Shown in pieces: positions 8,226-42,295 of a stretch of 44,494 nucleotides of DNA; within the stretch, counting starts at the first letter, position 1; each line of letters begins with the position of its first letter. The notes under the pieces were generated by a model. That model was not told the DNA's origin and did no database searches. It saw nothing but the letters and a program-made list of their open reading frames with translations. Source of the stretch: an uncultured Candidatus Saccharibacteria bacterium (GTDB lineage: Bacteria > Patescibacteriota > Minisyncoccia > Phycocordibacterales > UBA918); NCBI GenBank assembly GCA_964347215.1, contig CAYFXS010000001.1, forward strand, positions 1 to 44,494. Reading direction: 5' to 3'. The position numbers and the translations under genes were made by a program.

Positions 8226-8226
8226 G

Positions 8227-8270: not shown

Positions 8271-8271
8271 C

Positions 8272-22862: not shown

Positions 22863-24101
22863 ATGAAGTATTTTAGTTACGGTAAAGGATTGCTAGGTCT
22901 TGGTTTGCTACTGTTTGTAGCATCTGGTTACTGGTTGTTTTTTACCAGTGGTCACATCTTTACTAGTCAGTCAGCTACGGCTGACTCTAGTTTGGCCCAA
23001 CATAATAAATACTTTGCTACCAATCCATCATTTGGTGAGTTGGTGATTTACTTTCAAGATCTTTCACATGAGATTGGGGCTGATAAAGCTTTTGATGTCT
23101 TGATTTATGGTGATCTGCCGTCAGATGTAGATACTCATTTGGTTGGTCATGCTGTAGGGGACATTCTTTATGAACAGAAGGGTTTGTTAGGAATGTCTGA
23201 CTGTGACAGTAATCTTGGTTACGCGTGTACTCATTCGATAGTTATTCAGGCTTTGTTGCAACAAGGCCCTTCTGTATTTGATGAGATAAATGAGATTTGT
23301 GAGTCGATGGAAGTGGCTGGTAGTTACCCACTTTGTTTCCATGGCTTTGGACACGGTGTTTTGGCCTACGCTGATTATGAGTTACCGGATGCTATTGAGT
23401 TTTGCGGCAAAGTGGGGACGGAAAAGTATCAGAGCTACGAAGAGGTTGAATGTCTAGGAGGAGCTATTATGGAGATGAAAGAAGGTTTTCATAATCCAGA
23501 TTTATGGGAAGAAAGAGGTACTAAATATCTGTCGGATGAAAATCCTTTATTGATGTGTCAGTCAGATTATATGCCTGAGGAATATAAACGAATGTGTTAT
23601 ATCTACATCACGCCATTTATCTTCGACACAGTTTCGGGTGTAGGTTGGCCTGATCCAAATAAATTTGCTGAGGCTATGAGTTACTGTGACGTATTAGATG
23701 ACCCTAAACACAGAGATGGTTGTTTTGGTGGTTTTGGTAAAGAATATATCACTTTAGTGCACGGCCGAGACGTGCGTTTGATTGAAGAAACTACACCAAA
23801 GCAACACCAGACAATCAATGAATGGTGTGCTTTAGCTTCAGATATGGCTGGGGTTAGATCTTGTGTGCGTAATGCTATGTACAGTACCTACAAAGCGGGG
23901 GCAATTGATCACAATGTTACGGTCAGTTTGTGTAATGAGGCGGTAAATGATGAGGTAAGAAATGATTGTTTGAAATCTTTTATTTACAACGCTAGTTCAC
24001 ATCACCCTAATAATGAATACGCTAATCAGTTTTGCTTAGATATGCCAGAGGGGTACATTGGATATTGTTTTGATCGTTTTATGGATGCAATAGCAGAATA
24101 A
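22863..24101 (+). CDS. Membrane-anchored/secreted paired-cysteine His-rich protein, paralog 1
   Basis: It has an N-terminal TM helix and the motifs HLVGHAVGD, ACTHSIV and CFHGFGHGV. It aligns over long stretches with the 36073-37284 product (e.g. CFHGFGHGVLA, GGAIMEMK, DYMPEE). Confidence 0.8.
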   Translation: MKYFSYGKGLLGLGLLLFVASGYWLFFTSGHIFTSQSATADSSLAQHNKYFATNPSFGELVIYFQDLSHEIGADKAFDVLIYGDLPSDVDTHLVGHAVGDILYEQKGLLGMSDCDSNLGYACTHSIVIQALLQQGPSVFDEINEICESMEVAGSYPLCFHGFGHGVLAYADYELPDAIEFCGKVGTEKYQSYEEVECLGGAIMEMKEGFHNPDLWEERGTKYLSDENPLLMCQSDYMPEEYKRMCYIYITPFIFDTVSGVGWPDPNKFAEAMSYCDVLDDPKHRDGCFGGFGKEYITLVHGRDVRLIEETTPKQHQTINEWCALASDMAGVRSCVRNAMYSTYKAGAIDHNVTVSLCNEAVNDEVRNDCLKSFIYNASSHHPNNEYANQFCLDMPEGYIGYCFDRFMDAIAE

Positions 24102-24118
24102 TTTTTTGCTTAATTAAT

Positions 24119-25129
24119 ATGATCAAGCGTTTATCAATATTGTTGATCATTCTGATTATAGCGGGGTTGGTTTGGTGGCTGGCAGACAGCAGTGTCTACT
24201 CAGATGATATGCAAGGGGATGATCAAACTCCGCCAGTTGCGAGTGCTGATGTGTTTGAGCTAAAAGAATACTGGGTATCAGCTTTAGATCGAGATGAACC
24301 ACAAGCTGTATACGATTATTTTGTACGTACTTATGAAAATGATGATGAGAATAAACGTCATTTTCTTATGCATTTATTTAGCTCATTACTTTATGAAAAA
24401 ATGGGGGATAAAGCGTTGGAATTGTGTGATGAATCATTTTTTTATGGGTGCTTCCATGAAATATTAGCGAGTCTAATGAAAGACCAAGGGGTGGGTTCAA
24501 TCGATAAAATTGCAGATTTTTGCGGTGACAATTTAGGGTGTCAGCACGGTATAGGTCATGGATTGGTAATGCATTTTGGGTACCAACAGTCAGGCTTAAT
24601 TGAAGCTTTGGAAATGTGTCGTTATGTTAACGATCCGGAAGTTATAGATGGTTGCTTGGGAGGAGTGTTTATGGAGTACACCATGGAAACTGTCGGTCAG
24701 GTAACTGATGCAGTTGGCGAAGATCGTAGATATTTTAGAACTGATTTTTGCTATGGATTACCTACAGAAACAAAAGCGGCTTGTTATTTTTGGGTGGTGC
24801 AGTGGTACATAATAGATAACAATTTTAATATGGCTGATTTAAAAATTGCGAGTGGCCGAGAATTTTGTGCAGAGGCTGAAGAAGGTTATGTTGACGATTG
24901 TATGGGAGGAATCGGTTACGTAGTTAATCGCTTTGCTGTTAATCCAGATGAAAGCATCAGACTTTGCCAGTGGGCCAGTCCCAATCAAGAAGAGTTGGAA
25001 GTAGAGGAATGTTTAGTGGTGGCAGCTATTGATTACGGTTTCTTTAGTGATGAGACAGCGGTAGATAAGTTATGTGATTTGGTTTCTGGAGATAATCAAA
25101 GTCGTTGCCGGTCGGTTTTGAATGACTAA
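24119..25129 (+). CDS. Membrane-anchored/secreted paired-cysteine His-rich protein, paralog 2 (shorter, divergent)
   Basis: It has an N-terminal TM helix, GCFHEILASL, CQHGIGHGL, and a repeated phi-C-x(6-14)-C-x-x-G pattern. Confidence 0.75.
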   Translation: MIKRLSILLIILIIAGLVWWLADSSVYSDDMQGDDQTPPVASADVFELKEYWVSALDRDEPQAVYDYFVRTYENDDENKRHFLMHLFSSLLYEKMGDKALELCDESFFYGCFHEILASLMKDQGVGSIDKIADFCGDNLGCQHGIGHGLVMHFGYQQSGLIEALEMCRYVNDPEVIDGCLGGVFMEYTMETVGQVTDAVGEDRRYFRTDFCYGLPTETKAACYFWVVQWYIIDNNFNMADLKIASGREFCAEAEEGYVDDCMGGIGYVVNRFAVNPDESIRLCQWASPNQEELEVEECLVVAAIDYGFFSDETAVDKLCDLVSGDNQSRCRSVLND

Positions 25130-26001
25130 ATAATTGTTTTTACAAAAGGTAATACCAGCAGATCAAGCTCTGTATTTTTTAATGGAACAGTATCGGTGGT
25201 AACGCATGTGACTTTTTCCTGTTTTAACAATTGCTTCAGTTCAGGTGTCGGGCAGGAAAGTACTGCGTGGGTGACAAAAATAATAATTTTTTCTACTTCA
25301 GGATTATTTAAAAATTGTTCAACAGTTGCGCTGATGGTTTTACCGCTATCGATCATGTCGTCGCAGATAATAATGTTGGGTCTCACGGCTGGGGTGTCTA
25401 TTGATGTAGTAACTTGTGCATGGGTACGTTCTTTTTTGGCTACAACATAGTCACCGCCAAACTGTTCAGCTAAGTTTTTTGTAGTTTCGCCGGCACCTTG
25501 ATCCGGAGCAATGAATAAGCATTTGTCTGGTGCTATTGATAGTTTATCAAGGTGTTCGAGCCATACCGGCTGCGGATCAATTGAGTTGATAGGAGTATGA
25601 AACAACCTCAGTATTTCTTGGTTATGGATATCGATGACTTTAATTTTATTTAAGTGGCCAATACTATCTAATAATCTAGCAATAGCTCTAATGGGGAGGG
25701 TGGTAGAGGTGTCATTATTTTTATCTTGTCGTGAGTAAGGTAGGTATGGAACAGTAAGATTGATTTTACAGTTCTGACTCATTAAAGCGTCACAGATGAG
25801 ATATAGCTGAATTAGTGAGTCATTAATCTGAGGAGTTAGAAAGAATACCAGTTCAACTTCAGTAGAGAATTTAGGGTCGGCTTTTACCTCCCATTCACCA
25901 GAAGGGAATTGTTTAAAATCAATCAATGAAATCTGCTGCTCATCTGAGATAAGAGAGTTGGCAAAAATTTTATTGTTAGTGACTATAAGTGACTTACTCA
26001 T
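25126..26001 (-). CDS. prs: Ribose-phosphate pyrophosphokinase (PRPP synthase)-like protein
   Basis: The motifs are FPSGEW (FPDGE-like), PYLPYSRQDK, IDIHN (DLH-like) and the PRPP loop IIICDDMIDSGKT. Its start overlaps the end of the upstream fusion gene by 8 nt. Confidence 0.8.
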   Translation of the reverse strand: MSKSLIVTNNKIFANSLISDEQQISLIDFKQFPSGEWEVKADPKFSTEVELVFFLTPQINDSLIQLYLICDALMSQNCKINLTVPYLPYSRQDKNNDTSTTLPIRAIARLLDSIGHLNKIKVIDIHNQEILRLFHTPINSIDPQPVWLEHLDKLSIAPDKCLFIAPDQGAGETTKNLAEQFGGDYVVAKKERTHAQVTTSIDTPAVRPNIIICDDMIDSGKTISATVEQFLNNPEVEKIIIFVTHAVLSCPTPELKQLLKQEKVTCVTTDTVPLKNTELDLLVLPFVKTII

Positions 26002-27682
26002 TGTTTAAATGAAATGCAGTTAGGCCGTTGTCGTTAGTTGGTACGTACAGAGTATCATCATCAAAAATTACTGGTGAAGTAATCCTTTCATTTAGTTGTG
26101 TAACAGCCATGATTTCACCTGTTTCCTCTTTTATTTCGTATAAGCAAGCGTTGTTGGTGCCGATGTATACGATGCCGCCTTTAATAACAGGGGTAGAAAA
26201 CATTCTGGCTCGTAGGTCTATCTCCCACCTCACTTCACCAGTTCTTTTATCTACACAGTATAAGTACTTATCAGTAGCAGCAAATAACACATGTTGTTCG
26301 GTGATAGCTGGTGAGCCAAAAATACCTGATCGCACATTTGGATTGTAGAATTTTGTTCCGACTCTAAACACCATATCACCGGACTGTCTTTTGACTGCGT
26401 ACATAAAACCATCAACAGAAGCGACGTAAATGAAATCGTTGATTGGGTCATAAACAGGACGCTGCTTAATGTCTCCTGGACTGAAGCCGCCTACGCCATC
26501 GTAAAATTGACCCCCTTCAGTTTCAAAAGACCAGATAAGTTTTCCATCATTGGCATCAAGTAAGTAAAGTCGACCTTCGTTTGAGCCAATGGCAACTTGA
26601 TTATGCTCTTTAATATAAATTGGGGAAGCGTGGGTCAGGGCTCGCATGTTAAATTCCCAGAGTAATTTACCAGTGTCGATATCTAGTGCAGCCAAAGAGC
26701 CACGTCGGTTCTGTGGTCCACTGTGTTCGAGTCCAATGTAGATAGCGTTATTTTTATGACTAATACATGGGGATGATCCCACCCAGTCGCAGTTTTGGTA
26801 GACCCAATTGACTTGGCCCGAGTTTTTATTTAGAGCATAGAATTTACCGTCGTAAGATCCAAAAAACACTTGGTCTTTATAAACGGCAGGAGAAGAGAAA
26901 ATATTTTTTTGTTGATCGTGGACGCCGGTGACAAATTCCCAGGCAATTTTCCCAGTATCTTTATAAAGGGATATAAATTTACCCTGGTCAGTGCCAAAAT
27001 AAATGTTTTTGCCAACTACAGCAGGGATAGATTTCTGTGTCACCATGATGTGACTAGCAATTGACTGTTCGGCAACCCATTTTTGTCGGTAAGGGTTAAT
27101 TTTTGGTTGCAGATCGGTTGGTTTGATTGCAAAATCATCCAAACGAAAGATTGTCTCTAGCTTAGTGTTTTTGGTTAAAAAAGAATAGTAGCTGTTTTCA
27201 TGATATTGAATTGTGGTCAGAATATGAGAGATAGTTAGGTCATGTTTTTCTAGAACAGTTTTTGCCCAGAGCGCAGTCAATCCACTGTTAATTACATCAT
27301 CTACCAGAATTACAGGTGTGTTTCTTGGTTCACCTTCAATTTGTAAATAGCGACCACTTTTTTTACGTGAACGACGAATATAAAAACCGGTAACTGTCTT
27401 ACCATCTGCTGCCGCTCTATCTAGTAATGAGGTTAGAAGAGGGAATGAAGCTGTTTCCACCCCAGCCAGTTGGTAATTATCCAGGTGTGATATTTTTTGA
27501 TACAGATAATTTGTTAGTGAGGTAAGTAGTTCGGGGTTAAGTAACCACTTTTGCATCTCAATATGCCCACGACCTATGTATGGCATGGGGGTGTCAGACT
27601 CTGTTGGGTTAACGATGTAAGTTTTTATATACTCTTTCAATTCTGATGTATCCAAAGTAAAGGCATTATAACTAAGCAGCAA
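25994..27682 (-). CDS. Fusion protein: OPRT-like type I phosphoribosyltransferase domain plus 8-bladed PQQ/BamB-like beta-propeller
   Basis: The N-terminal ~190 aa carry the PRPP-binding loop VILVDDVINSGLT and the OPRT-like QLAGVETASFPL...RRSRKKSGRYLQIEG. The C-terminus has 8 repeats of the phi-phi-G-x-x-DG-x-phi-x-A-phi-D-x-x-x-G-x-x-x-W type (e.g. VFFGSYDGKFYALNKNSGQVNWVY). The ORF-track start is a TTG, so the true start is uncertain. No signal peptide is present. Confidence 0.75.
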   Translation of the reverse strand: MLLSYNAFTLDTSELKEYIKTYIVNPTESDTPMPYIGRGHIEMQKWLLNPELLTSLTNYLYQKISHLDNYQLAGVETASFPLLTSLLDRAAADGKTVTGFYIRRSRKKSGRYLQIEGEPRNTPVILVDDVINSGLTALWAKTVLEKHDLTISHILTTIQYHENSYYSFLTKNTKLETIFRLDDFAIKPTDLQPKINPYRQKWVAEQSIASHIMVTQKSIPAVVGKNIYFGTDQGKFISLYKDTGKIAWEFVTGVHDQQKNIFSSPAVYKDQVFFGSYDGKFYALNKNSGQVNWVYQNCDWVGSSPCISHKNNAIYIGLEHSGPQNRRGSLAALDIDTGKLLWEFNMRALTHASPIYIKEHNQVAIGSNEGRLYLLDANDGKLIWSFETEGGQFYDGVGGFSPGDIKQRPVYDPINDFIYVASVDGFMYAVKRQSGDMVFRVGTKFYNPNVRSGIFGSPAITEQHVLFAATDKYLYCVDKRTGEVRWEIDLRARMFSTPVIKGGIVYIGTNNACLYEIKEETGEIMAVTQLNERITSPVIFDDDTLYVPTNDNGLTAFHLNNE

Positions 27683-27778
27683 GAAGGATGGAACTTGACG
27701 TGTAAGTTAGAGTTTGGTTCGTGTCAATTTAAAATCATTTTGATATAAGTTAATATATTTTAAAGTTAGAATCACGAA

Positions 27779-29062
27779 ATGTCAGAGCATAAGGAAATTC
27801 AAAATGTTGTTTTAGTAGTCTGTGATTCATTATCAGCCATGCGTATGTCGTTGTATGGCCATAGACGTAAAACCACACCTAGAATCGACGCTTTTTTCCA
27901 ACAAAAAGGTGAGGTGTACTCCAATGTCCGCAGTAATGCTTCGTGGACTTTTCTCTCTTTTCCGTCATTGTTTCGGTCACAGATGCCGTCAGGCATCACG
28001 GTTAAAGAGTTGAGTAGTAACAGCAATTCTTTTACTAAAATTTTAGAAGCCAGTAATGTTTCGACGTATGGTATTGGCTATGAGGGAGAGAGGGCTATTT
28101 TACAGAATATACGGCAAGCCTTTCCTTCAGAGAAAATGTTTGCTTTTCCTTCTGGTGTTGAAGACAAGTCAGTTTATCAAATGTATCGTCAGGCCCTAGA
28201 TTTGCTGAAGAATAAAAACGAAGAAAAAAAAATTATATTACTACATGAAATGGGGGTGCATATGCCTTATGACCCCGCATCTAAGTACCGCACACTTTTT
28301 GGTAAAGATGTCATTCCAGATTCGGAGGTGGTAACTAAGGAAATGATATCCCCTATTCAGTATCAACAATATGACAATGTTTTTTCTAATCGAGTAAGAA
28401 GGCTTTACGATCAAGGGGTGAGAGAGTTTGATGATCGCTTCAGTGATTTTTTAGAACAAATAGACGAAGACATATTACGTAAAACGTTGGTTATTCTTAC
28501 TGCTGACCATGGTGAAACATTTGGATCTCGTGATAATGAGTATAATCACGGTACTCATCTGTGTGATGACTTGCTGCGGGTTCCATTATGTATTTATGAT
28601 CCTACTTCTAAAACAGGGAGGAGTATCGCTCCGTTTTCATTACTAGATTTAGCGCCAACTATTTTAGACCGACTGAATATCGGCATCCCGTCTCAGTATG
28701 AAGGTGTGCCAATCAATTTAAGTCAAACTAATCAAATGGAACGTCCTATATTGGCTGAAGGTAGGCGTAGTTCTGAAATTGCACCACGTGAGAACTTGCA
28801 ACACTTGGTGACTCATTATTCTGATAGATTCATACTTGATCCAGTTACACAAAAGACTGTGGTTATTGGAAAGTATAAGTACCATATATACGCAGTTGGT
28901 TTTGCTATTAAGGAGTATGTATACGATCTTGAAGTTGATCCGTTTGAAATGAACGATCTGTTGAAGCAGTCAGAAACTTTAAGTGAGAAGGTGAGAGAGT
29001 TTCATATTCGGGCGAGGAGTTTGGCTGATGTGAGAGGGGTTGTAGATAAGTTTATAAAATAA
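27779..29062 (+). CDS. Alkaline-phosphatase-superfamily (sulfatase-fold) enzyme without the formylglycine motif
   Basis: It has an N-terminal metal-site Asp (VVLVVCDSLSA), the LTADHGETFG motif and LLDLAPTIL. The nucleophile region reads NASWTFLSFPSLF rather than C/S-x-P-x-R. No signal peptide or TM helix is present. Confidence 0.7.
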   Translation: MSEHKEIQNVVLVVCDSLSAMRMSLYGHRRKTTPRIDAFFQQKGEVYSNVRSNASWTFLSFPSLFRSQMPSGITVKELSSNSNSFTKILEASNVSTYGIGYEGERAILQNIRQAFPSEKMFAFPSGVEDKSVYQMYRQALDLLKNKNEEKKIILLHEMGVHMPYDPASKYRTLFGKDVIPDSEVVTKEMISPIQYQQYDNVFSNRVRRLYDQGVREFDDRFSDFLEQIDEDILRKTLVILTADHGETFGSRDNEYNHGTHLCDDLLRVPLCIYDPTSKTGRSIAPFSLLDLAPTILDRLNIGIPSQYEGVPINLSQTNQMERPILAEGRRSSEIAPRENLQHLVTHYSDRFILDPVTQKTVVIGKYKYHIYAVGFAIKEYVYDLEVDPFEMNDLLKQSETLSEKVREFHIRARSLADVRGVVDKFIK

Positions 29063-29067
29063 CTAAT

Positions 29068-30681
29068 ATGGAAAAGATAAAGGAATTTATACAGAACGAA
29101 GTTATTAATAACAGCTACCAGGTCAATCCTTTTGATCCTTTCGATGTGGGGTATATTTTTGATTTTAAAAAACACATATTAAAACCAGATAAATTGGATT
29201 TAGTGGCGGAAGCGCTTTATGAAAAAATTAATAATCTGGATAATTACCAGCTAGGTGGTCTGGAAACCACGGCAGTTTTTTTAGTGACAAAATTATTATT
29301 GCTAGCTAAGCGTGATGGTAAAAATGTTAATGGTTTTTATATTAAAAAAACAGGTAGTCGATTAAATATTGAAAAAAATATCTGTGGTCAATTAAATAAT
29401 AATCCAATTATATTGGTAGACGATTTGATTAATTCTGGTTACGCAACTTTGAAGCAGGTGGATATGCTCAGTTCTCTTGGCTATAGGGTTAGTGGAGTTT
29501 TGGTGGCAGTTGCCTTCAAGTCGTTGTCTAAGTATAGTCCTATCACTGATAGGCAAATTGAGATAATGAGCTTATTTAATAAGAGTGAGTTTGTTATTGA
29601 AAAACCTATGCATAGACACTTTGCCGATGGGTTCCCTGCAAAAGGGTGGGTACAAAATTTCAATAAAGGTATTGTAGATATTGCTGTCAGCTCAGTGTCA
29701 GGTGTGTTATTGGTGTTAACAGCTGATGGCTTTGCATATATTTTGAATGGACAGTCAGGAGAAGTTTACAATCGGACTTTTGCTGGTTTTGGATTAAAGA
29801 TAGTTTCTGCGGCCGGTGACCAGTTTCTTTTGCAGGGTGATGATAGATTTTTATGGCTTGATGCGGTGAATGTGAAGATGGTCGGGGAAGTCTTGAGGGA
29901 GTTCAACTCTATTGCCTACGTTGACCAGGAAGAGTGTGTGATAGTTCTTGGGCTGGAAGAAGGAGTTGTTTATTTATCTAGTTACAAAAAACATGAAATC
30001 CAACCCTTTAAGAAAACTAAACTAGATCATTCGTTCACAGATGTAAAATATTTTGCTAATTGCCCTGTAATATTTTTACTTTCAGAATCAGGTACCATTG
30101 CTGGTTTTTCTCTAGAATCAAATAAAATAATTTGGCTACAAAAATTGGAGCTAGGTAAGCACATTTGGTCTGCCGCTAAATCCAATTTTAATAAATTTAC
30201 CTTCGACGTCGGTAGTGGTCAGGTGGCTTTTGGGACGGAGGGGGGATTATTGTTTGTGGTAGACATCGAGACTGGTGAGATTGTTTTGCAGCAACACTTA
30301 GATTACCTAGATACTGTTGTCAGGTCTCCGATGAGGTCTGCACCCGTTCTACATGATGGTAAATGTTATTTTGCTGGTTGGGATAAATTGATCACCAAGG
30401 CTTCTTTAGATAGTAAGGAGTTTGAATATCAAATGCCAGTTGGCAGCAAAATCAATGAACTATATAAAGATAAAGGAGATTGCTTGTGGGCTTTTGGGAA
30501 CAACGGAAAGATTTTTCGGTTACACACATCAAATTTTACTTTTTGCCTTAAACTATCGCTAGTGACATTGAAGGGGTTAGATAAAGTTGTTTATAATGAT
30601 GTCGAGGATAACTTTATTGTACTAACTGATAAGCAAACATTAACTTTAATTACTGATATTAAACATGAAACAAGACTCTAG
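29068..30681 (+). CDS. Second fusion protein: type I phosphoribosyltransferase domain plus degenerate beta-propeller
   Basis: The N-terminus parallels the 25994-27682 product (NLDNYQLGGLETTAVFL..., PRPP loop IILVDDLINSGYAT). The C-terminus has degenerate G-x-phi-phi-x-phi-D-x-x-x-G-E-phi repeats (GGLLFVVDIETGEIV, ADGFAYILNGQSGEV). Confidence 0.7.
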   Translation: MEKIKEFIQNEVINNSYQVNPFDPFDVGYIFDFKKHILKPDKLDLVAEALYEKINNLDNYQLGGLETTAVFLVTKLLLLAKRDGKNVNGFYIKKTGSRLNIEKNICGQLNNNPIILVDDLINSGYATLKQVDMLSSLGYRVSGVLVAVAFKSLSKYSPITDRQIEIMSLFNKSEFVIEKPMHRHFADGFPAKGWVQNFNKGIVDIAVSSVSGVLLVLTADGFAYILNGQSGEVYNRTFAGFGLKIVSAAGDQFLLQGDDRFLWLDAVNVKMVGEVLREFNSIAYVDQEECVIVLGLEEGVVYLSSYKKHEIQPFKKTKLDHSFTDVKYFANCPVIFLLSESGTIAGFSLESNKIIWLQKLELGKHIWSAAKSNFNKFTFDVGSGQVAFGTEGGLLFVVDIETGEIVLQQHLDYLDTVVRSPMRSAPVLHDGKCYFAGWDKLITKASLDSKEFEYQMPVGSKINELYKDKGDCLWAFGNNGKIFRLHTSNFTFCLKLSLVTLKGLDKVVYNDVEDNFIVLTDKQTLTLITDIKHETRL

Positions 30682-31627
30682 ACACCTGTATCACAATATC
30701 TGCAACAGTTCGTTATTTGTCAGTGATTTTTTAGCTAAAAATGCAGAGATAATTAAGCAGGACACACTTTTTATGCCTAGTCAGCTTGAGTTTCTTTGGA
30801 ATGCTGAAGAACACCGTGACGATTATATGTACGCAGAGCAGTTAACCTATGCTGTTAATCAGTTGAGTAGATTGATCGCTCCTTTATCGGTCTTTGAGCA
30901 ACTGACTGCTGACTGGACTGATTTGGAGGTGCGTGCTGCTGAAGAAGTTATAGCTAGGGCATTGCGAGCAAAAAGTTTATCACGTCGTCAAAAAATAAAA
31001 TCCTTGTTGGTACGATATATGTTGCGTAACTTGTTTGTGTCAAAAGTTAAAAAAGGGCAGGGTGACCAGCGTTTTGTGGTAAAGGTAGCAGATTTTGATC
31101 CGACTCCATTGCGTGCTGAGCTTAATAAACTCAATCCTCATTGGTGGTCTATTGATACGAGGAGGCAGAATAATATAACGCATCATCAGAAAACATGGTC
31201 ATTAATTTTACGGCAGTCACCAAATAAAACTGAATTTTATAAACCCATTGATCAAAAGCACGAAAGTCTGGCTACTTTAACGGCTGATTTGTTGCCCAAG
31301 ACACATGCGGCAATCTTACAGTTGGCTAATGAGCTAGGTATTGGTTTAGGTAGGGTGGCAGTGGTGAAGTTGCGACCCAAAGCTCAAGCTTATAGACATT
31401 ATGATTCAGAACGACATTTGGCGGGACGTAAACGGTATCATTTAGTATTAGATTCAGCTCAGAGCGGAAATATTTTAGAGTCAGGCAGCGAACGGGTGGA
31501 GGTTAAGCCGGGGGAAGTGTGGTTTTTTGATAATAAAGCTATGCATCGAGCGGTTAATAACTCAGACCAGTATCGAGTACATGTGATATTTGATGGTTAT
31601 CCCCTAAATGAAAAAGTTGATTACTAG
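30665..31627 (+). CDS. Aspartyl/asparaginyl beta-hydroxylase-family (cupin, 2-oxoglutarate/Fe(II)) protein
   Basis: The C-terminal region is YRHYDSERHLAGRKRYHLVL...VKPGEVWFFDNKAMHRAVNNSDQYRVHVIFD, which matches the H-x-D...H facial triad and W-F-D-x-x-x-x-H signature of that family. It overlaps the upstream gene by 17 nt. Confidence 0.65.
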   Translation: MKQDSRHLYHNICNSSLFVSDFLAKNAEIIKQDTLFMPSQLEFLWNAEEHRDDYMYAEQLTYAVNQLSRLIAPLSVFEQLTADWTDLEVRAAEEVIARALRAKSLSRRQKIKSLLVRYMLRNLFVSKVKKGQGDQRFVVKVADFDPTPLRAELNKLNPHWWSIDTRRQNNITHHQKTWSLILRQSPNKTEFYKPIDQKHESLATLTADLLPKTHAAILQLANELGIGLGRVAVVKLRPKAQAYRHYDSERHLAGRKRYHLVLDSAQSGNILESGSERVEVKPGEVWFFDNKAMHRAVNNSDQYRVHVIFDGYPLNEKVDY

Positions 31628-31667
31628 TCACAAGTGGTTACTTTAGTGGTATTATTTATTAAGCTTT

Positions 31668-32258
31668 ATGAACAAACAATTCAAATTTTTCTTATACGGT
31701 CTATTTGTGTTACCAATTCTTAATTTATTAGGTCTAACCCAGGAGGCTGGAGTTGAAGTTGAGCAACCGGCTCAAGAATTCAGTGTCACAAAACTTTTTA
31801 AAACAGTGCACGCAGACACTCCCTATTCACAGAGTTCTTATAGTTACTCCCAAAGCTCGTACTTTGCGGGTGATAGTGGTGATTCCGGCGACTCCGGTGA
31901 TGGTTATGAACCGCCAGCTGAACCACAGCCATCAGAGACGGTGGATTGTGTGAATGGCGCCAGTTATGAACAGCAGCCAGATGGCACCTACGACAGAACT
32001 GGCCCAGATGGTTCAGTTAGTAGTGGCTACACCGAAGCTTATGTTGAGTCAGTTTGTGGCTGTGATGTGGGGGCACCGGGTTACGCTTATTCACAGGCTG
32101 CCTACTACTCAGAATCTTCTTACTATTCTGAGTCAGGTTATTCTGACAATAGTGCTGGTATGGGCTATTCAGAATCCGGCTATTCAGGAGGGGGTTCTTC
32201 TGGTGGTACCAGTGGATACACCGGCGGCTATACCAGTGGTTATTGTCCAGCACCATAG
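31668..32258 (+). CDS. Secreted Ser/Tyr/Gly/Asp-rich low-complexity protein
   Basis: It has an N-terminal hydrophobic signal, YSQSSYSYSQSSYFAGDSGDSGDSGDGYEP, a central region with 3 Cys, and a tail YSESSYYSESGYS...GGYTSGYCPAP. Confidence 0.65.
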   Translation: MNKQFKFFLYGLFVLPILNLLGLTQEAGVEVEQPAQEFSVTKLFKTVHADTPYSQSSYSYSQSSYFAGDSGDSGDSGDGYEPPAEPQPSETVDCVNGASYEQQPDGTYDRTGPDGSVSSGYTEAYVESVCGCDVGAPGYAYSQAAYYSESSYYSESGYSDNSAGMGYSESGYSGGGSSGGTSGYTGGYTSGYCPAP

Positions 32259-33601: not shown

Positions 33602-33615
33602 TAACTGGTCACGTT

Positions 33616-34407: not shown

Positions 34408-34445
34408 GTCAACCAGAAGAATCTTTTTGTGACATAATAGTAAAT

Positions 34446-35690: not shown

Positions 35691-35702
35691 GATTAAAACT
35701 GC

Positions 35703-35731
35703 TTGCAATTTCTATTTTGCTACTGTATAGT
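35703..35731 (+). promoter_or_regulatory. Sigma70-like promoter for rpsT
   Basis: TTGCAA (35703-35708), a 17-nt spacer, then TATAGT (35726-35731), 20 nt upstream of the rpsT ATG. Confidence 0.5.
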
Positions 35732-35751
35732 TGCGCCACTAGAAATTAAGT

Positions 35752-36015
35752 ATGCCAATTACTAAAGGAGCAAAAAAAGCGCATCGTTCATCCTTAAACA
35801 AGCGAGTTTACAACTTGCGACGTAGTCGGGTTATGAATGATGCTGTTAAAGACCTTCGTAAGCTGATTGCTGCAGGTAACACTTCAGAAGCTGAATCTAA
35901 GCTGGCTGGTGTCTATAAAGCAATTGATAAAGCAGCTAAGCGAGGAATTATTAAAGCTAATACTGCTGCACGCAAGAAATCACGTCTTGTGGCCGCTATC
36001 AACAAAGCAAAATAA
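35752..36015 (+). CDS. rpsT: 30S ribosomal protein S20
   Basis: An 87-aa basic helical protein (MPITKGAKKAHRSSLNKRVYNLRRSRV...KAIDKAAKRGIIKANTAARKKSRL). Confidence 0.88.
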   Translation: MPITKGAKKAHRSSLNKRVYNLRRSRVMNDAVKDLRKLIAAGNTSEAESKLAGVYKAIDKAAKRGIIKANTAARKKSRLVAAINKAK

Positions 36016-36042
36016 GCGCCCAACGGGCGCTTTTGCTTTTTT
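36015..36042 (+). terminator. Intrinsic terminator after rpsT
   Basis: agcgccc (36015-36021) pairs with gggcgct (36025-36031) and is followed by a T-rich run. Confidence 0.7.
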
Positions 36043-36072
36043 ATCTTAATCAACAGTTGGTATACTAACCAT

Positions 36073-37284
36073 ATGAGATTTAAGTGGGGGTTAGTTATAC
36101 TTGTTGCTTTATTGAGTTTAGTGATATTTTTTTTAATTAAATATTTTGACTTATTTTCCATGATTGTCTCTACGGACATGGGGGATGATATTGCAGCCGC
36201 TGAATCAGCGGCGACTAATTTGGCCGAGCTATCAGTTTTTTTTGTCGATATAGCTGAAGAGCAGGGGGCTGTGTACGCTTATGAGCTTTTGCAGAAAATT
36301 ACCTTTCCGCCACACATCGATCAACATTTGATGGGTCATGTGGTGGGCGATGAGCTCTACAAGCAAGAGGGTCTTTCCGGAATGCAGTATTGCACCGATG
36401 ATTTTCGCAATGCTTGTTCGCACACTATTGTTATTGGGGCCTTATTGGAGCACGGGATGAAAGTGTTTAATGAGGTGAATGATGTATGTCATCTGGCTCC
36501 TGGTGGTACTGGGGCTTACACCATGTGTTTCCATGGTTTTGGTCACGGTGTTTTAGCTTTTGCAGAGTATGATATGGCTAAAGCGGTAGAGCTTTGTCAA
36601 AAGGCTGGGACAAGGGAGTATTTCAATCAGGAGTCTAATGAATGTATTGGTGGAGCTGTAATGGAGATGAAAGATGGAATTCATGATGAGGCAGTTTGGT
36701 CTCTACAGAAGGATAAGTATGTAAACCCAGAAAACCCACTGTCAATCTGTCAGGCAGATTATATGCCCGAAGAAGCTAAAGAGCGCTGCTATTCTTACAT
36801 TACCCCGTACCTTTTTGATGCTGGTGGGGCTGATGGTGGGTTGCCTACTCCGGATATATTTGCGGACAGTATGGCTTTTTGTGACCTAGAGCCAAATAGT
36901 CAATATCGATCACTTTGCTATCGTGGTTTTGGTAAGGAATATGTAGTTTTGGCTGTTGATTACCAGATAAGCTTACTAGAAAATGCGAACGGTGATCAAT
37001 TACAGAAAAATTTAGATTGGTGTAACTTGGCAGATGATGATGGGGGAGCGCTTGAGTGCAAAAAAGAAGTTGTTAATTCATTGTATTGGGGTGGTGAAAA
37101 TGATTATGCAGTTTCTTTGCGGTATTGTGCTTTGTGGCCAGAGGACATTGCTCAAAATTGTTATGAAACTTTGTATCGTAATGCAAAATATTATGTTCAT
37201 GATGAACATTATTACGGGCAGCTATGTAGTGATTCACCGCTTGAGCGGCAACAATTATGTTATTCAATGTTAGATCTAGAATAG
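36073..37284 (+). CDS. Membrane-anchored/secreted paired-cysteine His-rich protein, paralog 3 (closest to paralog 1)
   Basis: It has an N-terminal TM helix and the motifs HLMGHVVGD, ACSHTIVIGALL, CFHGFGHGVLAF, GGAVMEMKDG and ADYMPEEAK. Confidence 0.8.
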   Translation: MRFKWGLVILVALLSLVIFFLIKYFDLFSMIVSTDMGDDIAAAESAATNLAELSVFFVDIAEEQGAVYAYELLQKITFPPHIDQHLMGHVVGDELYKQEGLSGMQYCTDDFRNACSHTIVIGALLEHGMKVFNEVNDVCHLAPGGTGAYTMCFHGFGHGVLAFAEYDMAKAVELCQKAGTREYFNQESNECIGGAVMEMKDGIHDEAVWSLQKDKYVNPENPLSICQADYMPEEAKERCYSYITPYLFDAGGADGGLPTPDIFADSMAFCDLEPNSQYRSLCYRGFGKEYVVLAVDYQISLLENANGDQLQKNLDWCNLADDDGGALECKKEVVNSLYWGGENDYAVSLRYCALWPEDIAQNCYETLYRNAKYYVHDEHYYGQLCSDSPLERQQLCYSMLDLE

Positions 37285-38711
37285 CTGCTCATCACAAGTT
37301 GTTTTGGTTGGTGGCGGGGGTTTTGGCTGTTGTTTTCGTCTGCTTACATTTTATAAATTTTACAAATCATCAGATTAGATTTGATGGGCAGAAATTTATA
37401 CCAGAATATTTAGAAGTGAAGGTGGGAGATAGAGTGGTATTTATCAACGAAAGTGATAAAGAATTCTGGCCTGCTTCTAATTTACACCCCTCACACTCCA
37501 TATACAGTGAGTTCGACCCTAAACAGCCAGTGGCTATGGGTCAGTCATGGTCTTTTGTGTTTACTAAGGTTGGCGATTGGGAATTTCACGATCATTTAAC
37601 TCCAACAGCTAAGGGTCAAATATCAGTTTTAAGGAATAGTGATACAGAAAATACAGTCAGTAATTGTCAGGACAATATTACGTGTTGGCAGGAGCAGATA
37701 GTGAGCACTTTAAAAAAAGACGGGGCTGAAGAGGCTTTTGCTGTCTTCTCTCAGTTGTACGCAAATGAGGATAGGTTTCGTGTAGTGTGTCATGATATGG
37801 CACATTTGATTGGAGAGGAGGCTTATTCGGAGTTTGCTAAAGGGGCTGATTTTTCTCTTACGAATGCAACATCGTATTGTGGTTATGGTTTCTACCATGG
37901 TTTTATGGAGACATTGTTGGTTACTACTGGTGATATGGCGGCTGCTAGAAATTTCTGTGATTACGTTGATGAACAATTACAAGCATATGGTTCTGCTGCC
38001 ACCCAGGCTTGTTACCATGGAGTGGGACACGGTTTTACTGACGGTAGTGATCCGCGTGCTTGGGGAGATCCTGGTCGAGTAACTGCTACAGCGCTTAGAA
38101 TGTGTGAGGAAATTGCTACAAACTATAAAGATAAGTACCTGTGTGGCACAGGGGTTTATAATGGTCTGGCGATTGCTTTTGATGAAGGTCTGTATGATCT
38201 GTCAGTTACTCCGGAGACCGTATTTTCTACCTGTGCTGAAGTGGTAGATAAGGACTTTAAATTAGCTTGCTACGAACAAATGAATACATTAGCTGTTTCG
38301 GAAGCTCAGTACCATGCTGGTACTCTATTCAAAATGATTAGCGAAATTGAAGATAAAGAGTATGTCGGCTTAACTCTGCAATCAGCCGTTGGTGTCTTGG
38401 CTCATGCTAACCGTTCAGATGTTGGTTTGTTAGAAAATTTATTATCTGAGTGTTTGACTGTGTTTGAGTCTGAGCAGGTGATGTGTCTTAGCGGGGTAGT
38501 TGGTGGGTTGATAGAATTCGGTACACCTGGCCGGGAACATATTGAAGCAGCCGATTTGTGTCAATTGGATAGTCTTAACTCAGTTCAGCAGACGCAGTGC
38601 TTCCAGTCAGTAGTTGGTTTTGCACGTACCAGCAAAGGTGAATTAGTAGCTAGAGAAGTTTGTGATTTGTATTCCGATCAAACAGGTGAGACTTTATCTA
38701 ATTGTCGGTGA
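37257..38711 (+). CDS. Fusion: N-terminal TM helix plus cupredoxin-like domain (all-His signature) plus paired-cysteine His-rich domain, paralog 4
   Basis: The cupredoxin-like part is FIPEYLEVKVGDRVVFINESDKEFWPASNLHPSHSIYSEFDP...WSFVFTKVGDWEFHDHL. After it come CHDMAHLIGE, CGYGFYHGFMETLL and CYHGVGHGF. It overlaps the upstream gene by 28 nt. Confidence 0.8.
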   Translation: MLFNVRSRIAAHHKLFWLVAGVLAVVFVCLHFINFTNHQIRFDGQKFIPEYLEVKVGDRVVFINESDKEFWPASNLHPSHSIYSEFDPKQPVAMGQSWSFVFTKVGDWEFHDHLTPTAKGQISVLRNSDTENTVSNCQDNITCWQEQIVSTLKKDGAEEAFAVFSQLYANEDRFRVVCHDMAHLIGEEAYSEFAKGADFSLTNATSYCGYGFYHGFMETLLVTTGDMAAARNFCDYVDEQLQAYGSAATQACYHGVGHGFTDGSDPRAWGDPGRVTATALRMCEEIATNYKDKYLCGTGVYNGLAIAFDEGLYDLSVTPETVFSTCAEVVDKDFKLACYEQMNTLAVSEAQYHAGTLFKMISEIEDKEYVGLTLQSAVGVLAHANRSDVGLLENLLSECLTVFESEQVMCLSGVVGGLIEFGTPGREHIEAADLCQLDSLNSVQQTQCFQSVVGFARTSKGELVAREVCDLYSDQTGETLSNCR

Positions 38712-38713
38712 AT

Positions 38714-39592
38714 TTAACGTTGGGTATTTTTTAAGGCATTACTAAATTGTTGGTTGTCAGGATTTAGTTCGATGGCTTTTGTGAAGGCATCGATGGCTTC
38801 TGTAGTGGAGCCAGCCCCCTGGTAGGCAACACCCATGGTGTAGTAAACTTCAGCCTTCTCTCTAATCTCATGTAAAAAATCCTGACAAGCTACCACTGCT
38901 TCATCAAATTTTCTTTGGTAAATATATAGCCAGGCCAGTCCCAGGTACGACTCGCTTTTGGGGTTAATGGTAAATACTTTTTGATACATGTCTTCAGCTT
39001 CGGTATAACGTCCCATTTCTCGGTAAAGGTCACCTAGGCCCGAGTGGGCTATTTCGCTGTTAGGGTTTATCGCTAGGGATTTTTTAAACATAGCTTCTGA
39101 CTCTTTATGTCGACCCTCTTCAAAATATAAGTAGCCTAAGCCATAACTATAAGCATTTTCAAAATTAGGATCGATTTCCAGGGCTTTATAGAAGCTAGTT
39201 TCGGCTTCCTGGTAAAGATTCATGTTGCGGTAGAGTTTACCTAAATCTGTATAAATCCACGGGTTGTTTGGGTCAATTTTCAATGCTTCTTTAAACATAG
39301 CTTCCGATTCTGCATATTTACCCCAATAACGATATGTGTGAGCTGTGTCTAAGTGAGCTTGTAGATTGTCTGGTTCCAATTCAATAATTCTTAGGTAGTG
39401 AGCAATAGATTCTTCATATTTACCAGTAACGTATAGCTTATCGGCTTCAGTAAAAAGAGAGTTGATGTCAGTGGTAGTAATATTTAGTTCTTTTTCGGGT
39501 TTAGGTTGATTGTTGTTGGTGTATAAAAAAACAACTGTCATAATTAATAAAATCAACAATATCGGAGCGATGAACATTAACTTTTTGGACAT
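38714..39592 (-). CDS. Membrane-anchored TPR repeat protein
   Basis: It has an N-terminal TM helix and about seven clear 34-aa TPR units (e.g. YEESIAHYLRIIELEPDNLQAHLDTAHTYRYWGK). It is the only minus-strand gene in this block. Confidence 0.8.
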   Translation of the reverse strand: MSKKLMFIAPILLILLIMTVVFLYTNNNQPKPEKELNITTTDINSLFTEADKLYVTGKYEESIAHYLRIIELEPDNLQAHLDTAHTYRYWGKYAESEAMFKEALKIDPNNPWIYTDLGKLYRNMNLYQEAETSFYKALEIDPNFENAYSYGLGYLYFEEGRHKESEAMFKKSLAINPNSEIAHSGLGDLYREMGRYTEAEDMYQKVFTINPKSESYLGLAWLYIYQRKFDEAVVACQDFLHEIREKAEVYYTMGVAYQGAGSTTEAIDAFTKAIELNPDNQQFSNALKNTQR

Positions 39593-39639
39593 GTCTGTAT
39601 TGTAACAGTCTGTATAAATCTGGTGTTATACTAAGGCGA

Positions 39640-41115
39640 ATGTTCAGACTATTTTCAGCTCAGGTACTATTAATTATCGGTATTTTATTGGCTGCTTTTT
39701 TAAGTTTTATACTATTTTTCTCAGCTGGCAACCAACATGAAGTAGTGCTCACTGAGTCTGGTTATCAACCTTTGAGTTTAACGATTGCGGTGGGAGATAC
39801 TGTCACATTTGTTACTAACTTAGCTGAAGATCATTGGCCAGCCTCTAATGTTCATCCAGCCCACACAGCTTATCCTGATTTTGATCCTCGTCGCCCTGTG
39901 CCAGCAACAGTGTCTTGGTCTTTTACTTTTACTGAGTCTGGCACTTATAAATTTCATGACCATTTAAATGCCCAGTATGAAGGTGTTATTGTGGTGGGGG
40001 AGGAGACGAAAATAGATACTGCTGCTTGTGATCAGGATAAAACAGTGCGTTGTTTTGAACAGTTGGTGGAGGAGGTGGTGGCAGAAGGTGGAATAAAAGC
40101 GGCTTTTGATGTGGTGGTAGAGCTCTCAGAGACTGAACCGTTATTTCGTAATGATTGCCATGGTTACGCTCATATAATAGGCGAGGCAGCGTATGATCTG
40201 TATGCAAATGGAGAAGATTTTTCATTGTCAGCTGATACCGCTTTATGTGGTTACGGTTTCTATCATGGCTTCATGGAAACATTACTACTTACCAATGGTG
40301 ATGTAGAAGAAGCTCGTAGTTTTTGTCGCTACGTTGATAAGCAATTATCTAAACTGGCGGCTGGAGCGAGCAATGCTTGTTTCCATGGTACAGGTCATGG
40401 GGCGGTAGACGGTAGTGATCCGACCGCTTGGGGTGATGTAGATGCTCTGATGGAGCCAGGTTTTATTTTGTGTGAGAAGATCGCTAAAACTGAGCTGCAA
40501 AGTTACCTTTGTCACACAGGGGTGTTTAACGCGATTGATATTCTTTCTCGTGATCCTAAATACGACATAGAGGAAGTTCAACAAGATCCGTTTGCTACCG
40601 TTTGCTACCATCAGCCAGATGAACGTCTAGAAGGATGTTACACCAACATGATGCCGGTAGTTTTAACAATGTATAAAAATGATGTTGCGGCGACCGCTGA
40701 TTATATTAATGAACATATGTTAAGAGGGGAGACGCCTTCAATTGAGGGTTATACAACCAATGAGATGGTTACCTTAGCTGTGTTTGCCCAATATGTTCGT
40801 ATTCATGGGTCTGAAGAGGGTTATATGGAAAGAGCGATTGATCTGTGTCGATCGCAACCGGCTGACGATCAGTATGCTTGCTTTGAAGGGTTATCTTACA
40901 GTCATGTTAAGTATGGTCCACCCGGCAAGGGTTACATCAAGAATCTGGAATTTTGTGCCCATCCTGATTTGGTAGACACAGAAGAAGATGCTTGTTATAG
41001 CTATTTATTAAATCGTTTACGTAATTACTATGGAAATGAAGGAGCTAAGCAAGTGTGCGCTATGGTTCCGGAAGAATATAGTAGTAAGTATTGCCAGTAT
41101 GTCTCGTTTATTTAA
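39640..41115 (+). CDS. Fusion: N-terminal TM helix plus cupredoxin-like domain plus paired-cysteine His-rich domain, paralog 5
   Basis: The cupredoxin-like part is YQPLSLTIAVGDTVTFVTNLAEDHWPASNVHPAHTAYPDFDP...WSFTFTESGTYKFHDHL. After it come CHGYAHIIGE, CGYGFYHGFMETLL and CFHGTGHGA. Confidence 0.8.
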   Translation: MFRLFSAQVLLIIGILLAAFLSFILFFSAGNQHEVVLTESGYQPLSLTIAVGDTVTFVTNLAEDHWPASNVHPAHTAYPDFDPRRPVPATVSWSFTFTESGTYKFHDHLNAQYEGVIVVGEETKIDTAACDQDKTVRCFEQLVEEVVAEGGIKAAFDVVVELSETEPLFRNDCHGYAHIIGEAAYDLYANGEDFSLSADTALCGYGFYHGFMETLLLTNGDVEEARSFCRYVDKQLSKLAAGASNACFHGTGHGAVDGSDPTAWGDVDALMEPGFILCEKIAKTELQSYLCHTGVFNAIDILSRDPKYDIEEVQQDPFATVCYHQPDERLEGCYTNMMPVVLTMYKNDVAATADYINEHMLRGETPSIEGYTTNEMVTLAVFAQYVRIHGSEEGYMERAIDLCRSQPADDQYACFEGLSYSHVKYGPPGKGYIKNLEFCAHPDLVDTEEDACYSYLLNRLRNYYGNEGAKQVCAMVPEEYSSKYCQYVSFI

Positions 41116-42295
41116 GGTCATTACATTATTTATATTAATTTTAGCTTCAGCAGTGGCTGTTTGGTGGTTTAGTTTCAGTAAGGAAGCGGTTGTTGATTTG
41201 TCCATTTCTGATTATGCGCAGCTGTTAGTGGAGAATTGCAGTGAAGTAGATTACAAACCGTACTGTTACGAAACTGAGTTGATGGGATTGACTCCTGATT
41301 TACCTACCACGGAAATATTTGATGTTATTAGATCAATTAGAGACTATGACCCAGAGTATTTGTTCTGTCATGTAGCTGCTCATAACTTAGGGCAGTATGA
41401 GGTCTCCAAAGATCCTAATAATTGGCTCGACGTGTTAGCCAATAGTCCAACCGATGGGTTATGTTCGAATGGTTACGCTCATGGTGCTATTCTGGCGCGC
41501 TTTAATGGTGAGACATTTACTGGTGATGAATTAATTACCATTATTGATCAGTTAAAAGATGTTTGTGAACCAAGAGGGGAATGGCAGCCAACTGATTTGC
41601 ATAAGGCAATGTGTTATCACGGACTGGGTCACGTTATGATTCATGTCACCGAAACTGACGTTGTTAAGTCATTGGCGGCATGTGAAGACATTGCCTTAAA
41701 AGAAAATGATGACTTCAGGCGAGTTTGTCGTGAGGGGGTTTATATGCAGCTATTTCAACCGCTTGAGCCAGAAGACTACGCGCTGATTGATTTGTTGGAA
41801 ACTAAACCAAGTCGGAAAAATATTGAAGACTTTTGTCAACGCTATAGCAGCAATGAAGATGAGTTCAACGTTTGTTGGCGTGAGGCTTGGCCATTTTTTA
41901 ATCAAGATTTACGAACTGCCGAAGGGGTGGCTGGTTATTGTGAAGTGTTGTCTGACGAAGATGGTAAAAATAATTGCTATTACTCAGCTTTCACAATCAA
42001 CGGTCGACATTTTCTTGGTCAACCAGAGGTGATTGTTGATATTTGTGAGGCTAGTGCTGCCGAGCGGCAGGGGATGTGTTATCAGGTGGCAGCTAATGCT
42101 TATCTGGAAGAAGATGCGCAGTTGGTTAGCGAAGGTTTGGCCATGTGTGAGTTACCAACTAGTCAAGTAGCAAAAGAGGAGTGTTATGGACATCTAGCTC
42201 GTTTGTCAGACTTCAATTTTCATCGTGACTCTGAGGCATTTACAGAACTCTGTCAGGCGTTACCTGAGAAATTTCAGGCATCCTGTTGGGATTGA
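41099..42295 (+). CDS. Membrane-anchored/secreted paired-cysteine His-rich protein, paralog 6
   Basis: The start is set at the internal ATG (MSRLFKVITLFILILASAVAVWWF), which overlaps the upstream gene by 17 nt. The motifs are FCHVAAHNLGQ, LCSNGYAHGAIL and CYHGLGHVM. By my count it has 18 Cys, mostly in pairs 9-15 residues apart. Confidence 0.75.
   Translation: MSRLFKVITLFILILASAVAVWWFSFSKEAVVDLSISDYAQLLVENCSEVDYKPYCYETELMGLTPDLPTTEIFDVIRSIRDYDPEYLFCHVAAHNLGQYEVSKDPNNWLDVLANSPTDGLCSNGYAHGAILARFNGETFTGDELITIIDQLKDVCEPRGEWQPTDLHKAMCYHGLGHVMIHVTETDVVKSLAACEDIALKENDDFRRVCREGVYMQLFQPLEPEDYALIDLLETKPSRKNIEDFCQRYSSNEDEFNVCWREAWPFFNQDLRTAEGVAGYCEVLSDEDGKNNCYYSAFTINGRHFLGQPEVIVDICEASAAERQGMCYQVAANAYLEEDAQLVSEGLAMCELPTSQVAKEECYGHLARLSDFNFHRDSEAFTELCQALPEKFQASCWD

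Follow-up and report, generated by a model that had tools for sequence, protein, structure and literature searches.

What kind of protein family is encoded by a set of six genes for membrane-anchored, histidine- and cysteine-rich proteins in an uncultured Candidatus Saccharibacteria bacterium, and what might these proteins do on the outer side of the membrane? The genes lie in a 44,494-nucleotide stretch of DNA, referred to throughout as the window (assembly GCA_964347215.1, contig CAYFXS010000001.1, positions 1 to 44,494). An initial annotation, made from the letters of this stretch and a list of its open reading frames (ORFs), had proposed that the six proteins form a family with an extracytoplasmic metal-binding or redox function. 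Further analysis shows that the family is real and large, is specific to one lineage and carries no annotation at all. Its conserved site is striking, its gene order is conserved too, and it combines known kinds of module, a helical repeat probably stapled by disulfides and, joined to it, a cupredoxin that is not of the blue type. Tentatively, and with somewhat less than even confidence, the system is read from its conserved residues as an extracytoplasmic metal-binding module, probably for copper. The six genes, designated p1 to p6, encode proteins that share a helical ectodomain, here called the CH domain, as follows.

22863-24101, + strand: p1, CH-domain protein of 412 amino acids (aa) with an N-terminal anchor, 8 Cys pairs and H92/H96/H124/H160/H164
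~23136-23354, within p1: nucleotides (nt) coding for the p1 His cluster
24119-25129, + strand: p2, short CH-domain protein of 336 aa with 7 Cys pairs
36073-37284, + strand: p3, CH-domain protein of 403 aa, with p1 as its nearest paralog
37257-38711, + strand: p4, anchor, cupredoxin-like domain (~residues 32-124) and CH domain, 484 aa
39640-41115, + strand: p5, anchor, cupredoxin-like domain (residues ~28-122, nt 39724-40005) and CH domain, 491 aa
41099-42295, + strand: p6, CH-domain protein of 398 aa from ATG 41099, with 9 Cys pairs

All six ORFs were found on the + strand where the initial annotation had put them. The p6 frame is open from 41030 and could alternatively start at the ATG there; the start at 41099 is preferred because the anchor begins at that point. 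The homology of the six as true paralogs is borne out by all-against-all BLASTP, which pairs p1 with p3 (40% identity, E 8e-98) and p4 with p5 (34% identity, E 4e-97), links p2 to p1 (E 5e-14) and to p3 (E 8e-15), and joins the remaining pairs at E 1e-7 to 2e-2. A database of 5.8 billion proteins, searched with a profile of the six paralogs, yields both subfamilies at E 1e-90 to 1e-143. Their MAFFT alignment contains 18 invariant columns, including five His (H92, H96, H124, H160 and H164 in p1 numbering) and nine Cys (C146, C158, C181, C197, C232, C245, C322, C391 and C402); G161, G163 and G200 are invariant as well. Each of the motifs quoted in the initial annotation is present in this alignment. 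The first motif of p2 had been called degenerate, which is correct for its Gly-Asp/Glu part and incorrect for its two His, intact as H81 and H85 in RHFLMHLFSS; p2 keeps all five His (H81, H85, H113, H143 and H147). A third conserved element had been overlooked: the following helix carries H124, in most cases within an H-x3-E motif.

The Cys content of p1 to p6 is 16/14/16/17/16/18, in agreement with the 18 initially counted in p6, and the seventeenth Cys of p4 is located in its membrane anchor. The paired-Cys pattern itself also stands, with a spacing that is mostly 11-16 residues (full range 6-18) where 9-15 had been given, and with one long-range pair, C173-C203 in p5. Each protein has a single hydrophobic segment at its N-terminus, consistent with the TM or signal anchor proposed for all six. 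AlphaFold2 (AF2) models this anchor as a helix spanning residues 8-33 in p1 and 7-27 in p5, and an N-terminal anchor is present in 376 of 386 ORFs of the family; the proposed extracytoplasmic topology is supported.

The six genes encode type-II membrane-anchored proteins, and their ectodomain is an alpha-solenoid composed of 7-9 homologous helix-turn-helix repeats of ~35-50 residues each, with one Cys pair per hairpin. The AF2 model of p1, which draws on 79 homologs, is all-alpha and of high confidence (predicted local distance difference test, pLDDT, 93.4; predicted template-modelling score, pTM, 0.87), and the p5 model is of similar confidence (pLDDT 91.6). The p1 pairs are (114,122), (146,158), (181,197), (232,245), (275,287), (322,334), (357,369) and (391,402), and DSSP assignment of the p1 model places the first Cys of each pair at the C-terminal end of a short helix A and the second ~6 residues into a longer helix B. 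When the hairpin units were cut from the alignment and compared pairwise by hhalign, unit 5 matched unit 7 (92%) and unit 7 matched unit 8 (93%) in register, with further in-register matches for units 5-6, 3-5 and 6-7 at 59-69%, so that the repeats making up the ectodomain are homologous and arranged in tandem.

Conservation was assessed in a family sample of 413 CH ORFs from 76 loci (including L001-L075), in which the Cys pairs are 93-98% conserved; in the family consensus, the C-terminal repeats form the variable part. Of 370 ectodomains, 346 contain an even number of Cys. In variable Cys columns, the two partners are gained or lost together (phi 0.99 for 114/122, 1.0 for 275/287, 0.85 for 322/334 and 0.80 for 391/402), and the alternative pair of p4-p6, C173/C203 in p5, likewise gives phi 1.0. 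Because of this paired-Cys evidence and the extracytoplasmic topology, one disulfide staple per hairpin is the natural reading, and each pair probably closes its own hairpin. Metal storage by Cys thiolates, as in Csp-type proteins, was considered and rejected, since Cys pairs that occur once per repeat along the entire solenoid leave thiols unable to cluster as they do in Csp.

Each of the five His is conserved at 94-96% across the sample, and all five are co-present in 303 of 317 near-full-length members. They are found on three consecutive long helices, as H92-x3-H96, H124 and C158-x-H160-G-x-G-H164, giving the pattern HxxxH / HxxxE / HxxxH at equivalent positions just past the second Cys of successive repeats. 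The Glu four positions after H124 occurs in 65% of members; in the p1/p3 type the second helix contributes H alone, without H-x3-E, and members fused to the cupredoxin domain have H209 and E213 without exception. A sixth His, H210, is present in 87% of the p1/p3 subfamily and rare overall. In six exceptional sequences H96, H160 and H164 are replaced together, with H92 and H124 remaining. Because equivalent positions on adjacent solenoid helices lie side by side, the five His, with Glu in most members, are predicted to cluster in space and would form one membrane-proximal mono- or binuclear metal site.

A polar cluster of this type might instead serve an extracellular enzyme family. Its members could, for instance, be oxidases, hydrolases or lyases that attack polymers of the host or the environment through a His/Glu active site with or without metal, the paralogs differing in substrate. 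The invariant cluster includes H-x3-H, a motif that occurs in binuclear copper or iron centres of helical proteins; the paralogs have the character of subfunctionalised orthogroups, one relative is fused to a GH3 domain, and a redox-type cupredoxin fold is attached to some members. Type-3 copper proteins (tyrosinase, hemocyanin) hold six His, in two sets of three that include H-x3-H, on a four-helix bundle, whereas only five His are family-wide in the CH family, and H210, the sixth, is limited to proteins of the p1/p3 subtype. Neither Pfam nor Foldseek matches the CH domain to tyrosinase or hemocyanin, and neither reveals similarity to any other enzyme family or fold. The gene neighbourhood provides no substrate clue either. 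An enzymatic role is judged unlikely.

The two members that the initial annotation had described as cupredoxin fusions bear out that description with respect to fold, although the canonical type-1 copper site is absent. A beta domain occupies residues 32-119 in the p5 model and matches plastocyanin, amicyanin, pseudoazurin and the N. maritimus cupredoxin 5fc9 in the PDB (template-modelling score, TM, 0.7-0.79; Foldseek prob 1.00); it is the cupredoxin part alone that finds matches in the p5 search. Homology to amicyanin is also detectable by sequence (phmmer, E 1e-4), and 260 homologs share the p5 architecture. The copper ligands of amicyanin are Cys92, His95, Met98 and, as the N-terminal His ligand, His53. 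In the alignment, Cys92, His95 and Met98 correspond to Asp107, Asn and Tyr, and the equivalent of His53 is Phe in 72% of 169 cupredoxin-like domains, none of which contains a Cys. In these same domains a replacement motif, W66-P-A-S69, H72-P-x-H75, F81-D82 and H106-D107-H108, is 97-99% conserved. The H72-H75 loop is the sole low-confidence stretch of the p5 model, as expected of an empty metal loop. Relative to type-1 cupredoxins (amicyanin, plastocyanin, pseudoazurin; Pfam Cupredoxin_1, PF13473), the window domain thus shares the fold and detectable sequence homology, but it lacks the His-Cys-His-Met copper site, has a 4-residue insertion bearing HPxH, carries an H-D-H triplet at the position of the Cys ligand, and is membrane-tethered and, in p4 and p5, fused to the helical domain.

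These substitutions decide against classical blue-copper electron carriers of the plastocyanin kind that would shuttle electrons to nitrite reductase. That idea draws on the cupredoxin fold, on the label 'plastocyanin' that JGI assigns to several p5 homologs, and on proposals that single cupredoxins donate electrons to NirK in Parcubacteria and Patescibacteriota (PMC5581439, PMC12931201). It is rejected because the ligands are absent; in addition, the Pfam scores fall under the gathering threshold and the window contains no nirK gene. The domain is a cupredoxin fold with a different, His/Asp-rich ligand set, and a role as blue-copper electron carrier is regarded as highly improbable. The NirK-donor reading is not supported for the window domain, and the ligand pattern does not support the label 'plastocyanin' for its relatives.

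The closest architecture to that of p4 and p5 is found in EfeO, with which the logic is common and homology is not. EfeO, from the iron uptake system EfeUOB, has an extracytoplasmic non-blue cupredoxin followed by an all-alpha, metal-binding domain (M75/imelysin-like), and both EfeO and the cupredoxin-CH proteins have a motif of the H-x-x-(x)-E metal type in the helical domain. EfeO (7wgu) is among the p5 Foldseek matches (E 5e-4), with an alignment that covers the cupredoxin part only (TM 0.16-0.23). No Pfam match to Peptidase_M75 was obtained for the six paralogs or for 40 diverse members of the family, EfeO is without the disulfide-stapled repeats of the CH domain, and no EfeU or EfeB partner was seen near the window cluster.

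Three more ORFs in the window belong to the cluster:

42319-42834, + strand: x7, signal peptide ending in ...VQA with His as the next residue, Ig-like beta domain of ~110 aa, and C-terminal anchor with a basic tail
42837-43190, + strand: x8, stand-alone membrane-anchored cupredoxin-like protein with the motif WPAS-x2-HPxH...HDH and no Cys
44177-44494, + strand: partial ORF for a further anchored cupredoxin-like protein (HMM match), cut by the window end, with a Cys-less WPAS-HPxH-HDH motif

The x8 ORF is open from TTG 42810, and its product is 43-45% identical to the cupredoxin-like domains of p4 and p5. Homologs of x7 adjoin CH arrays in 29 of the 76 loci, and in all 29 an Ala-His pair spans the predicted cleavage site, directly after a signal-peptide-like segment. 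Signal-peptide cleavage would leave a mature N-terminal His in a conserved start (A-H-G-x-G); the homologs also conserve E, D, D, W, Y and R and contain just one invariant His. Histidine-brace copper sites (CopC, YcnI, LPMO, LPMO-like X325 and the CuB site of PmoB) are characterised by a beta-sandwich whose first mature residue is a His, and the same arrangement is predicted for x7. Its C-terminal membrane tether, too, resembles that of YcnI or of GPI-anchored X325 proteins. Unlike the histidine-brace families, however, x7 has no recognisable Pfam membership; among 22 members there is no match to CopC (PF04234), YcnI (PF07987; DUF1775) or LPMO at E<=10, and at best weak Ig-like resemblances (PKD, filamin, Big, YtkA). 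Searches of PDB sequences and of the 5.8-billion-protein database return nothing named. The x7 proteins are an unnamed family restricted to these clusters, for which a site of the histidine-brace type is a possible lead that does not extend to family membership.

The CH domain does not correspond to any named family, as the initial annotation had suspected. Pfam and NCBIfam find nothing for the helical domain of the six paralogs, nor, even at E<=1, for the 40 diverse members; against PDB sequences, the family profile yields only a chance match to Cas12e (E 2.3). Foldseek comparison of the p1 model returns no match at E<=1e-3 in either the PDB (best E 0.018, TM ~0.2) or the BFVD viral predicted structures, and a literature search found no description of the family. 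Its likeness to Sel1/Hcp repeats, noted at the outset, holds for hairpins with one Cys pair each and not for Sel1 membership by sequence: the Sel1 profile (PF08238) has no match at E<=1 in the six paralogs or the 40 diverse members. The disulfide-stapled Sel1/Hcp repeat is nonetheless the closest concept, in pattern but not in sequence. Sel1-like proteins such as Helicobacter HcpA-E and the CH proteins are secreted or extracytoplasmic helix-turn-helix solenoids with repeats of ~35-45 residues, and both have a single Cys pair per repeat, which links the two helices of the hairpin in Hcp and probably does so in the CH domain. The CH domain differs in its TM of ~0.2 to any solenoid (Foldseek), in a Cys spacing of 11-16 residues where that of Hcp is shorter, and in its invariant His cluster, membrane anchor and cupredoxin fusion, none of which is known from Hcp proteins.

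The sole Foldseek resemblances of p1, to generic importin, ARM, HEAT, TPR, Sel1 and retromer solenoids, are among the observations that favour a function without metal. In that case the CH proteins would be surface scaffolds or adhesins, solenoids that bind protein or glycan, a usual role of Sel1, TPR and ARM repeats, and by which an epibiont attaches to or senses its host, with the His ladder acting as a structural element or pH switch. Binding solenoids are what the search finds, and the family as a whole has further traits in keeping with such a role. Some relatives contain up to seven tandem CH domains, with fusions to FG-GAP or GH3 among them, there are many divergent paralogs per genome, the C-terminal repeats vary, and the cluster includes an anchored TPR protein. 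On the other side, five His on three adjacent helices are ~95% kept across paralogs of ~20% identity, which is rare for pure scaffolds, and invariant ligand-type residues also occur in the cupredoxin-like and N-terminal-His partners. The paralogs are, moreover, old and orthologous and not fast-evolving as host-interaction adhesins tend to be. A scaffold or adhesin without metal is viewed as a rather unlikely explanation.

Among 1.84 billion representative proteins, the family profile matches 7,426 representative clusters at a threshold of E<=1e-3, of which 2,688 remain at E<=1e-30, the clusters being defined at 50% identity and the figure a lower bound. Nearly all members are from Patescibacteria; named sources are Paceibacterota, Parcubacteria, Kaiser-, Nomura-, Yanofsky-, Sung-, Taylor-, Colwell-, Doudna- and Daviesbacteria, and Peregrinibacteria. 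A few records are labelled Verrucomicrobiia, Acidimicrobiales, Nanoarchaeota or 'uncultured Gammaproteobacteria', and these labels look like binning or auto-labelling issues. An N-terminal cupredoxin domain is present in 127 of the 413 CH ORFs, and the 76 loci also hold 42 stand-alone cupredoxin-like ORFs and 29 x7 ORFs. Other multi-domain relatives are fused to GH3, FG-GAP or extra cupredoxins; none of these fusions is diagnostic, and some may be gene-call fusions. The genes of an array mostly share a strand and follow directly on one another; there are 5-17 copies, and the neighbouring core genes include rpsT, ruvA and those of the tuf/fus region. The largest has 17 CH genes across 21 kb (L054).

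A recurring order runs S20, CH, cupredoxin-CH, TPR, cupredoxin-CH, CH, x7 and stand-alone cupredoxin-like protein. In the closest relative locus, L002 (GCA_043719295.1), the sequence is Mur ligase, RuvA, TPR, a 172-aa gene, S20, CH (418 aa), cupredoxin-CH (494) and a 481-aa gene, then TPR and a 385-aa gene (both on the - strand), cupredoxin-CH (495), CH (401), x7 (172) and cupredoxin-like protein (132). The window matches this order from rpsT onward, and L001 has the same core. In the window, p3 is the first gene past the rpsT (S20) terminator at 36014-36032 and takes the position of the 418-aa gene after S20 in L002; the start of p4 overlaps the stop of p3 by 28 nt. The TPR gene of the window is:

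38714-39592, - strand: membrane-anchored TPR protein (Pfam TPR_1, E 2e-52)

It recurs between the two cupredoxin-CH genes, at the same position in L001-L004, and has homologs in 13 loci. The two CH loci of the window had been described as bracketing an accessory island, a picture that fails because p1 and p2 themselves lie inside the stretch that is variable with respect to L002. Every window paralog has better matches in other genomes than its best in-genome paralog, and the loci with such closer matches number 70 for the p6 type, 45 for p2, 39 for p3, 30 for p5, 20 for p4 and 6 for p1. As orthologs are closer than in-genome paralogs, the recent local expansion that had been proposed is refuted in favour of orthogroups with conserved order across Patescibacteria, and the paralogs are ancient, syntenic and subfunctionalised.

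Clustering of recurrent neighbours over the 76 loci reveals four additional unnamed families, none with a Pfam match: an anchored beta protein of 176 aa with two Cys, a polytopic membrane protein of 325 aa, and proteins of 160 aa and 560 aa. The 176-aa protein is the commonest unannotated array neighbour (L008 3381-3911, L037 6176-6715 and 22 other loci), with no copy seen in the window. Its C-terminus carries the motif ...G-x-Y-G-Y-x-C-D...G...V, two Cys are conserved, and it could represent a further small beta partner, perhaps a cupredoxin-like one. The 325-aa protein occurs at 11 loci in total (among them L033 11922-12896, L046 8187-9164 and L048 1397-2380), sits inside several arrays, often close to the 160-aa protein, which is anchored, and is a candidate membrane partner. 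A role for it as a DsbB/VKOR-like oxidase was rejected, as it is without conserved Cys.

The metal-binding reading brings these components together as a conserved cell-surface module of Patescibacteria whose metal would most likely be Cu(II), and which could serve to take up this metal, to pass it on or to employ it as redox cofactor. In p4 and p5, a cupredoxin-fold domain is added between anchor and solenoid, with the invariant residues H72, H75, D82, H106, D107 and H108 in place of the blue-copper ligands. The CH proteins, the stand-alone cupredoxin-like x8 and the N-terminal-His protein x7 would cooperate, and the divergent C-terminal repeats of the ancient paralogs could confer different binding specificities or positions in a complex. 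Invariant ligand-type residues are found in three different proteins of this one conserved cluster. Several observations weigh against the metal-binding reading. The CH domain has no sequence or fold match among known metalloprotein families; no metal transporter, chaperone or metalloregulator was found nearby, and an Rfam scan of the whole window detects no metal riboswitch. The 5-17 paralogs per genome are unusual for metal homeostasis. The clustering of His and the S-S distances are deduced solely from helix boundaries and repeat register, an invariant His ladder could also be a catalytic or pH-sensing site, and the joint replacement of three His is weak evidence for a coupled site because it may reflect a single evolutionary event (6 sequences from 4 loci). 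A more far-reaching version is unlikely: the stapled solenoid would be a new extracellular metalloprotein fold class with a His5(Glu) mono- or binuclear copper centre and, alongside a four-His cupredoxin devoid of Cys and the Ig-like protein with its N-terminal His, would constitute an unrecognised copper-dependent surface machinery, a relay or oxidase, as a core lineage-defining trait of Paceibacteria-type members of the candidate phyla radiation (CPR). If so, this machinery would take up a sizeable share of tiny genomes in which arrays are large, as in L054.

Other features of the window lie outside the CH cluster. An N-terminal phosphoribosyltransferase-like domain is fused to a PQQ/BamB-type beta-propeller in two genes, at 25994-27682 (- strand) and 29068-30681 (+ strand), whose neighbours are PRPP-synthetase-like (25126-26001), sulfatase (27779-29062) and Asp/Arg beta-hydroxylase-like (30665-31627) genes; this propeller-fusion block is missing from L002, the closest syntenic relative. 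A secreted low-complexity protein with repeats of the Y-S-Q-S-S-Y type is encoded at 31668-32258 (+ strand). Such repeats also occur in relatives at 13 loci, and in L002 (16675-17517) they are joined to a PT-HINT (intein-like) domain. At 8218-8279, a perfect-looking hairpin between convergent genes, with a sub-threshold 'MIR8001' Rfam match on both strands, is most likely a bidirectional terminator. A 176-aa ORF at 43528-44058 (- strand) lies in a stretch with a G+C of 0.465 compared to ~0.41 nearby, and a strong hairpin resembling a terminator comes after it at 43517-43490; the ORF has no relation to the cluster and is possibly of foreign origin. From 13000 to 43000, GC skew is steadily positive, with cumulative skew rising throughout, and most genes are on the + strand, consistent with a location on the leading strand of one replichore.

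The CPR/Patescibacteria, which have minimal genomes and a lifestyle of attachment to other cells, account for a large part of the diversity of bacteria, and their surface proteome is mostly unannotated. With thousands of clusters, 5-17 copies, an order kept across candidate phyla and absence from Pfam, NCBIfam and the PDB, the CH family is among the larger uncharacterised investments of these organisms. Even on a conservative view it is a new domain family worth a Pfam entry, and models with pLDDT above 90 suggest well-behaved targets for structural and metal-binding work. Should the His cluster bind copper or another metal, the finding would correct the habit of annotating the attached domains as 'plastocyanin' carriers for NirK, and it would provide the first indication that these organisms, which are considered to lack respiration, possess a dedicated extracellular metallo-system.

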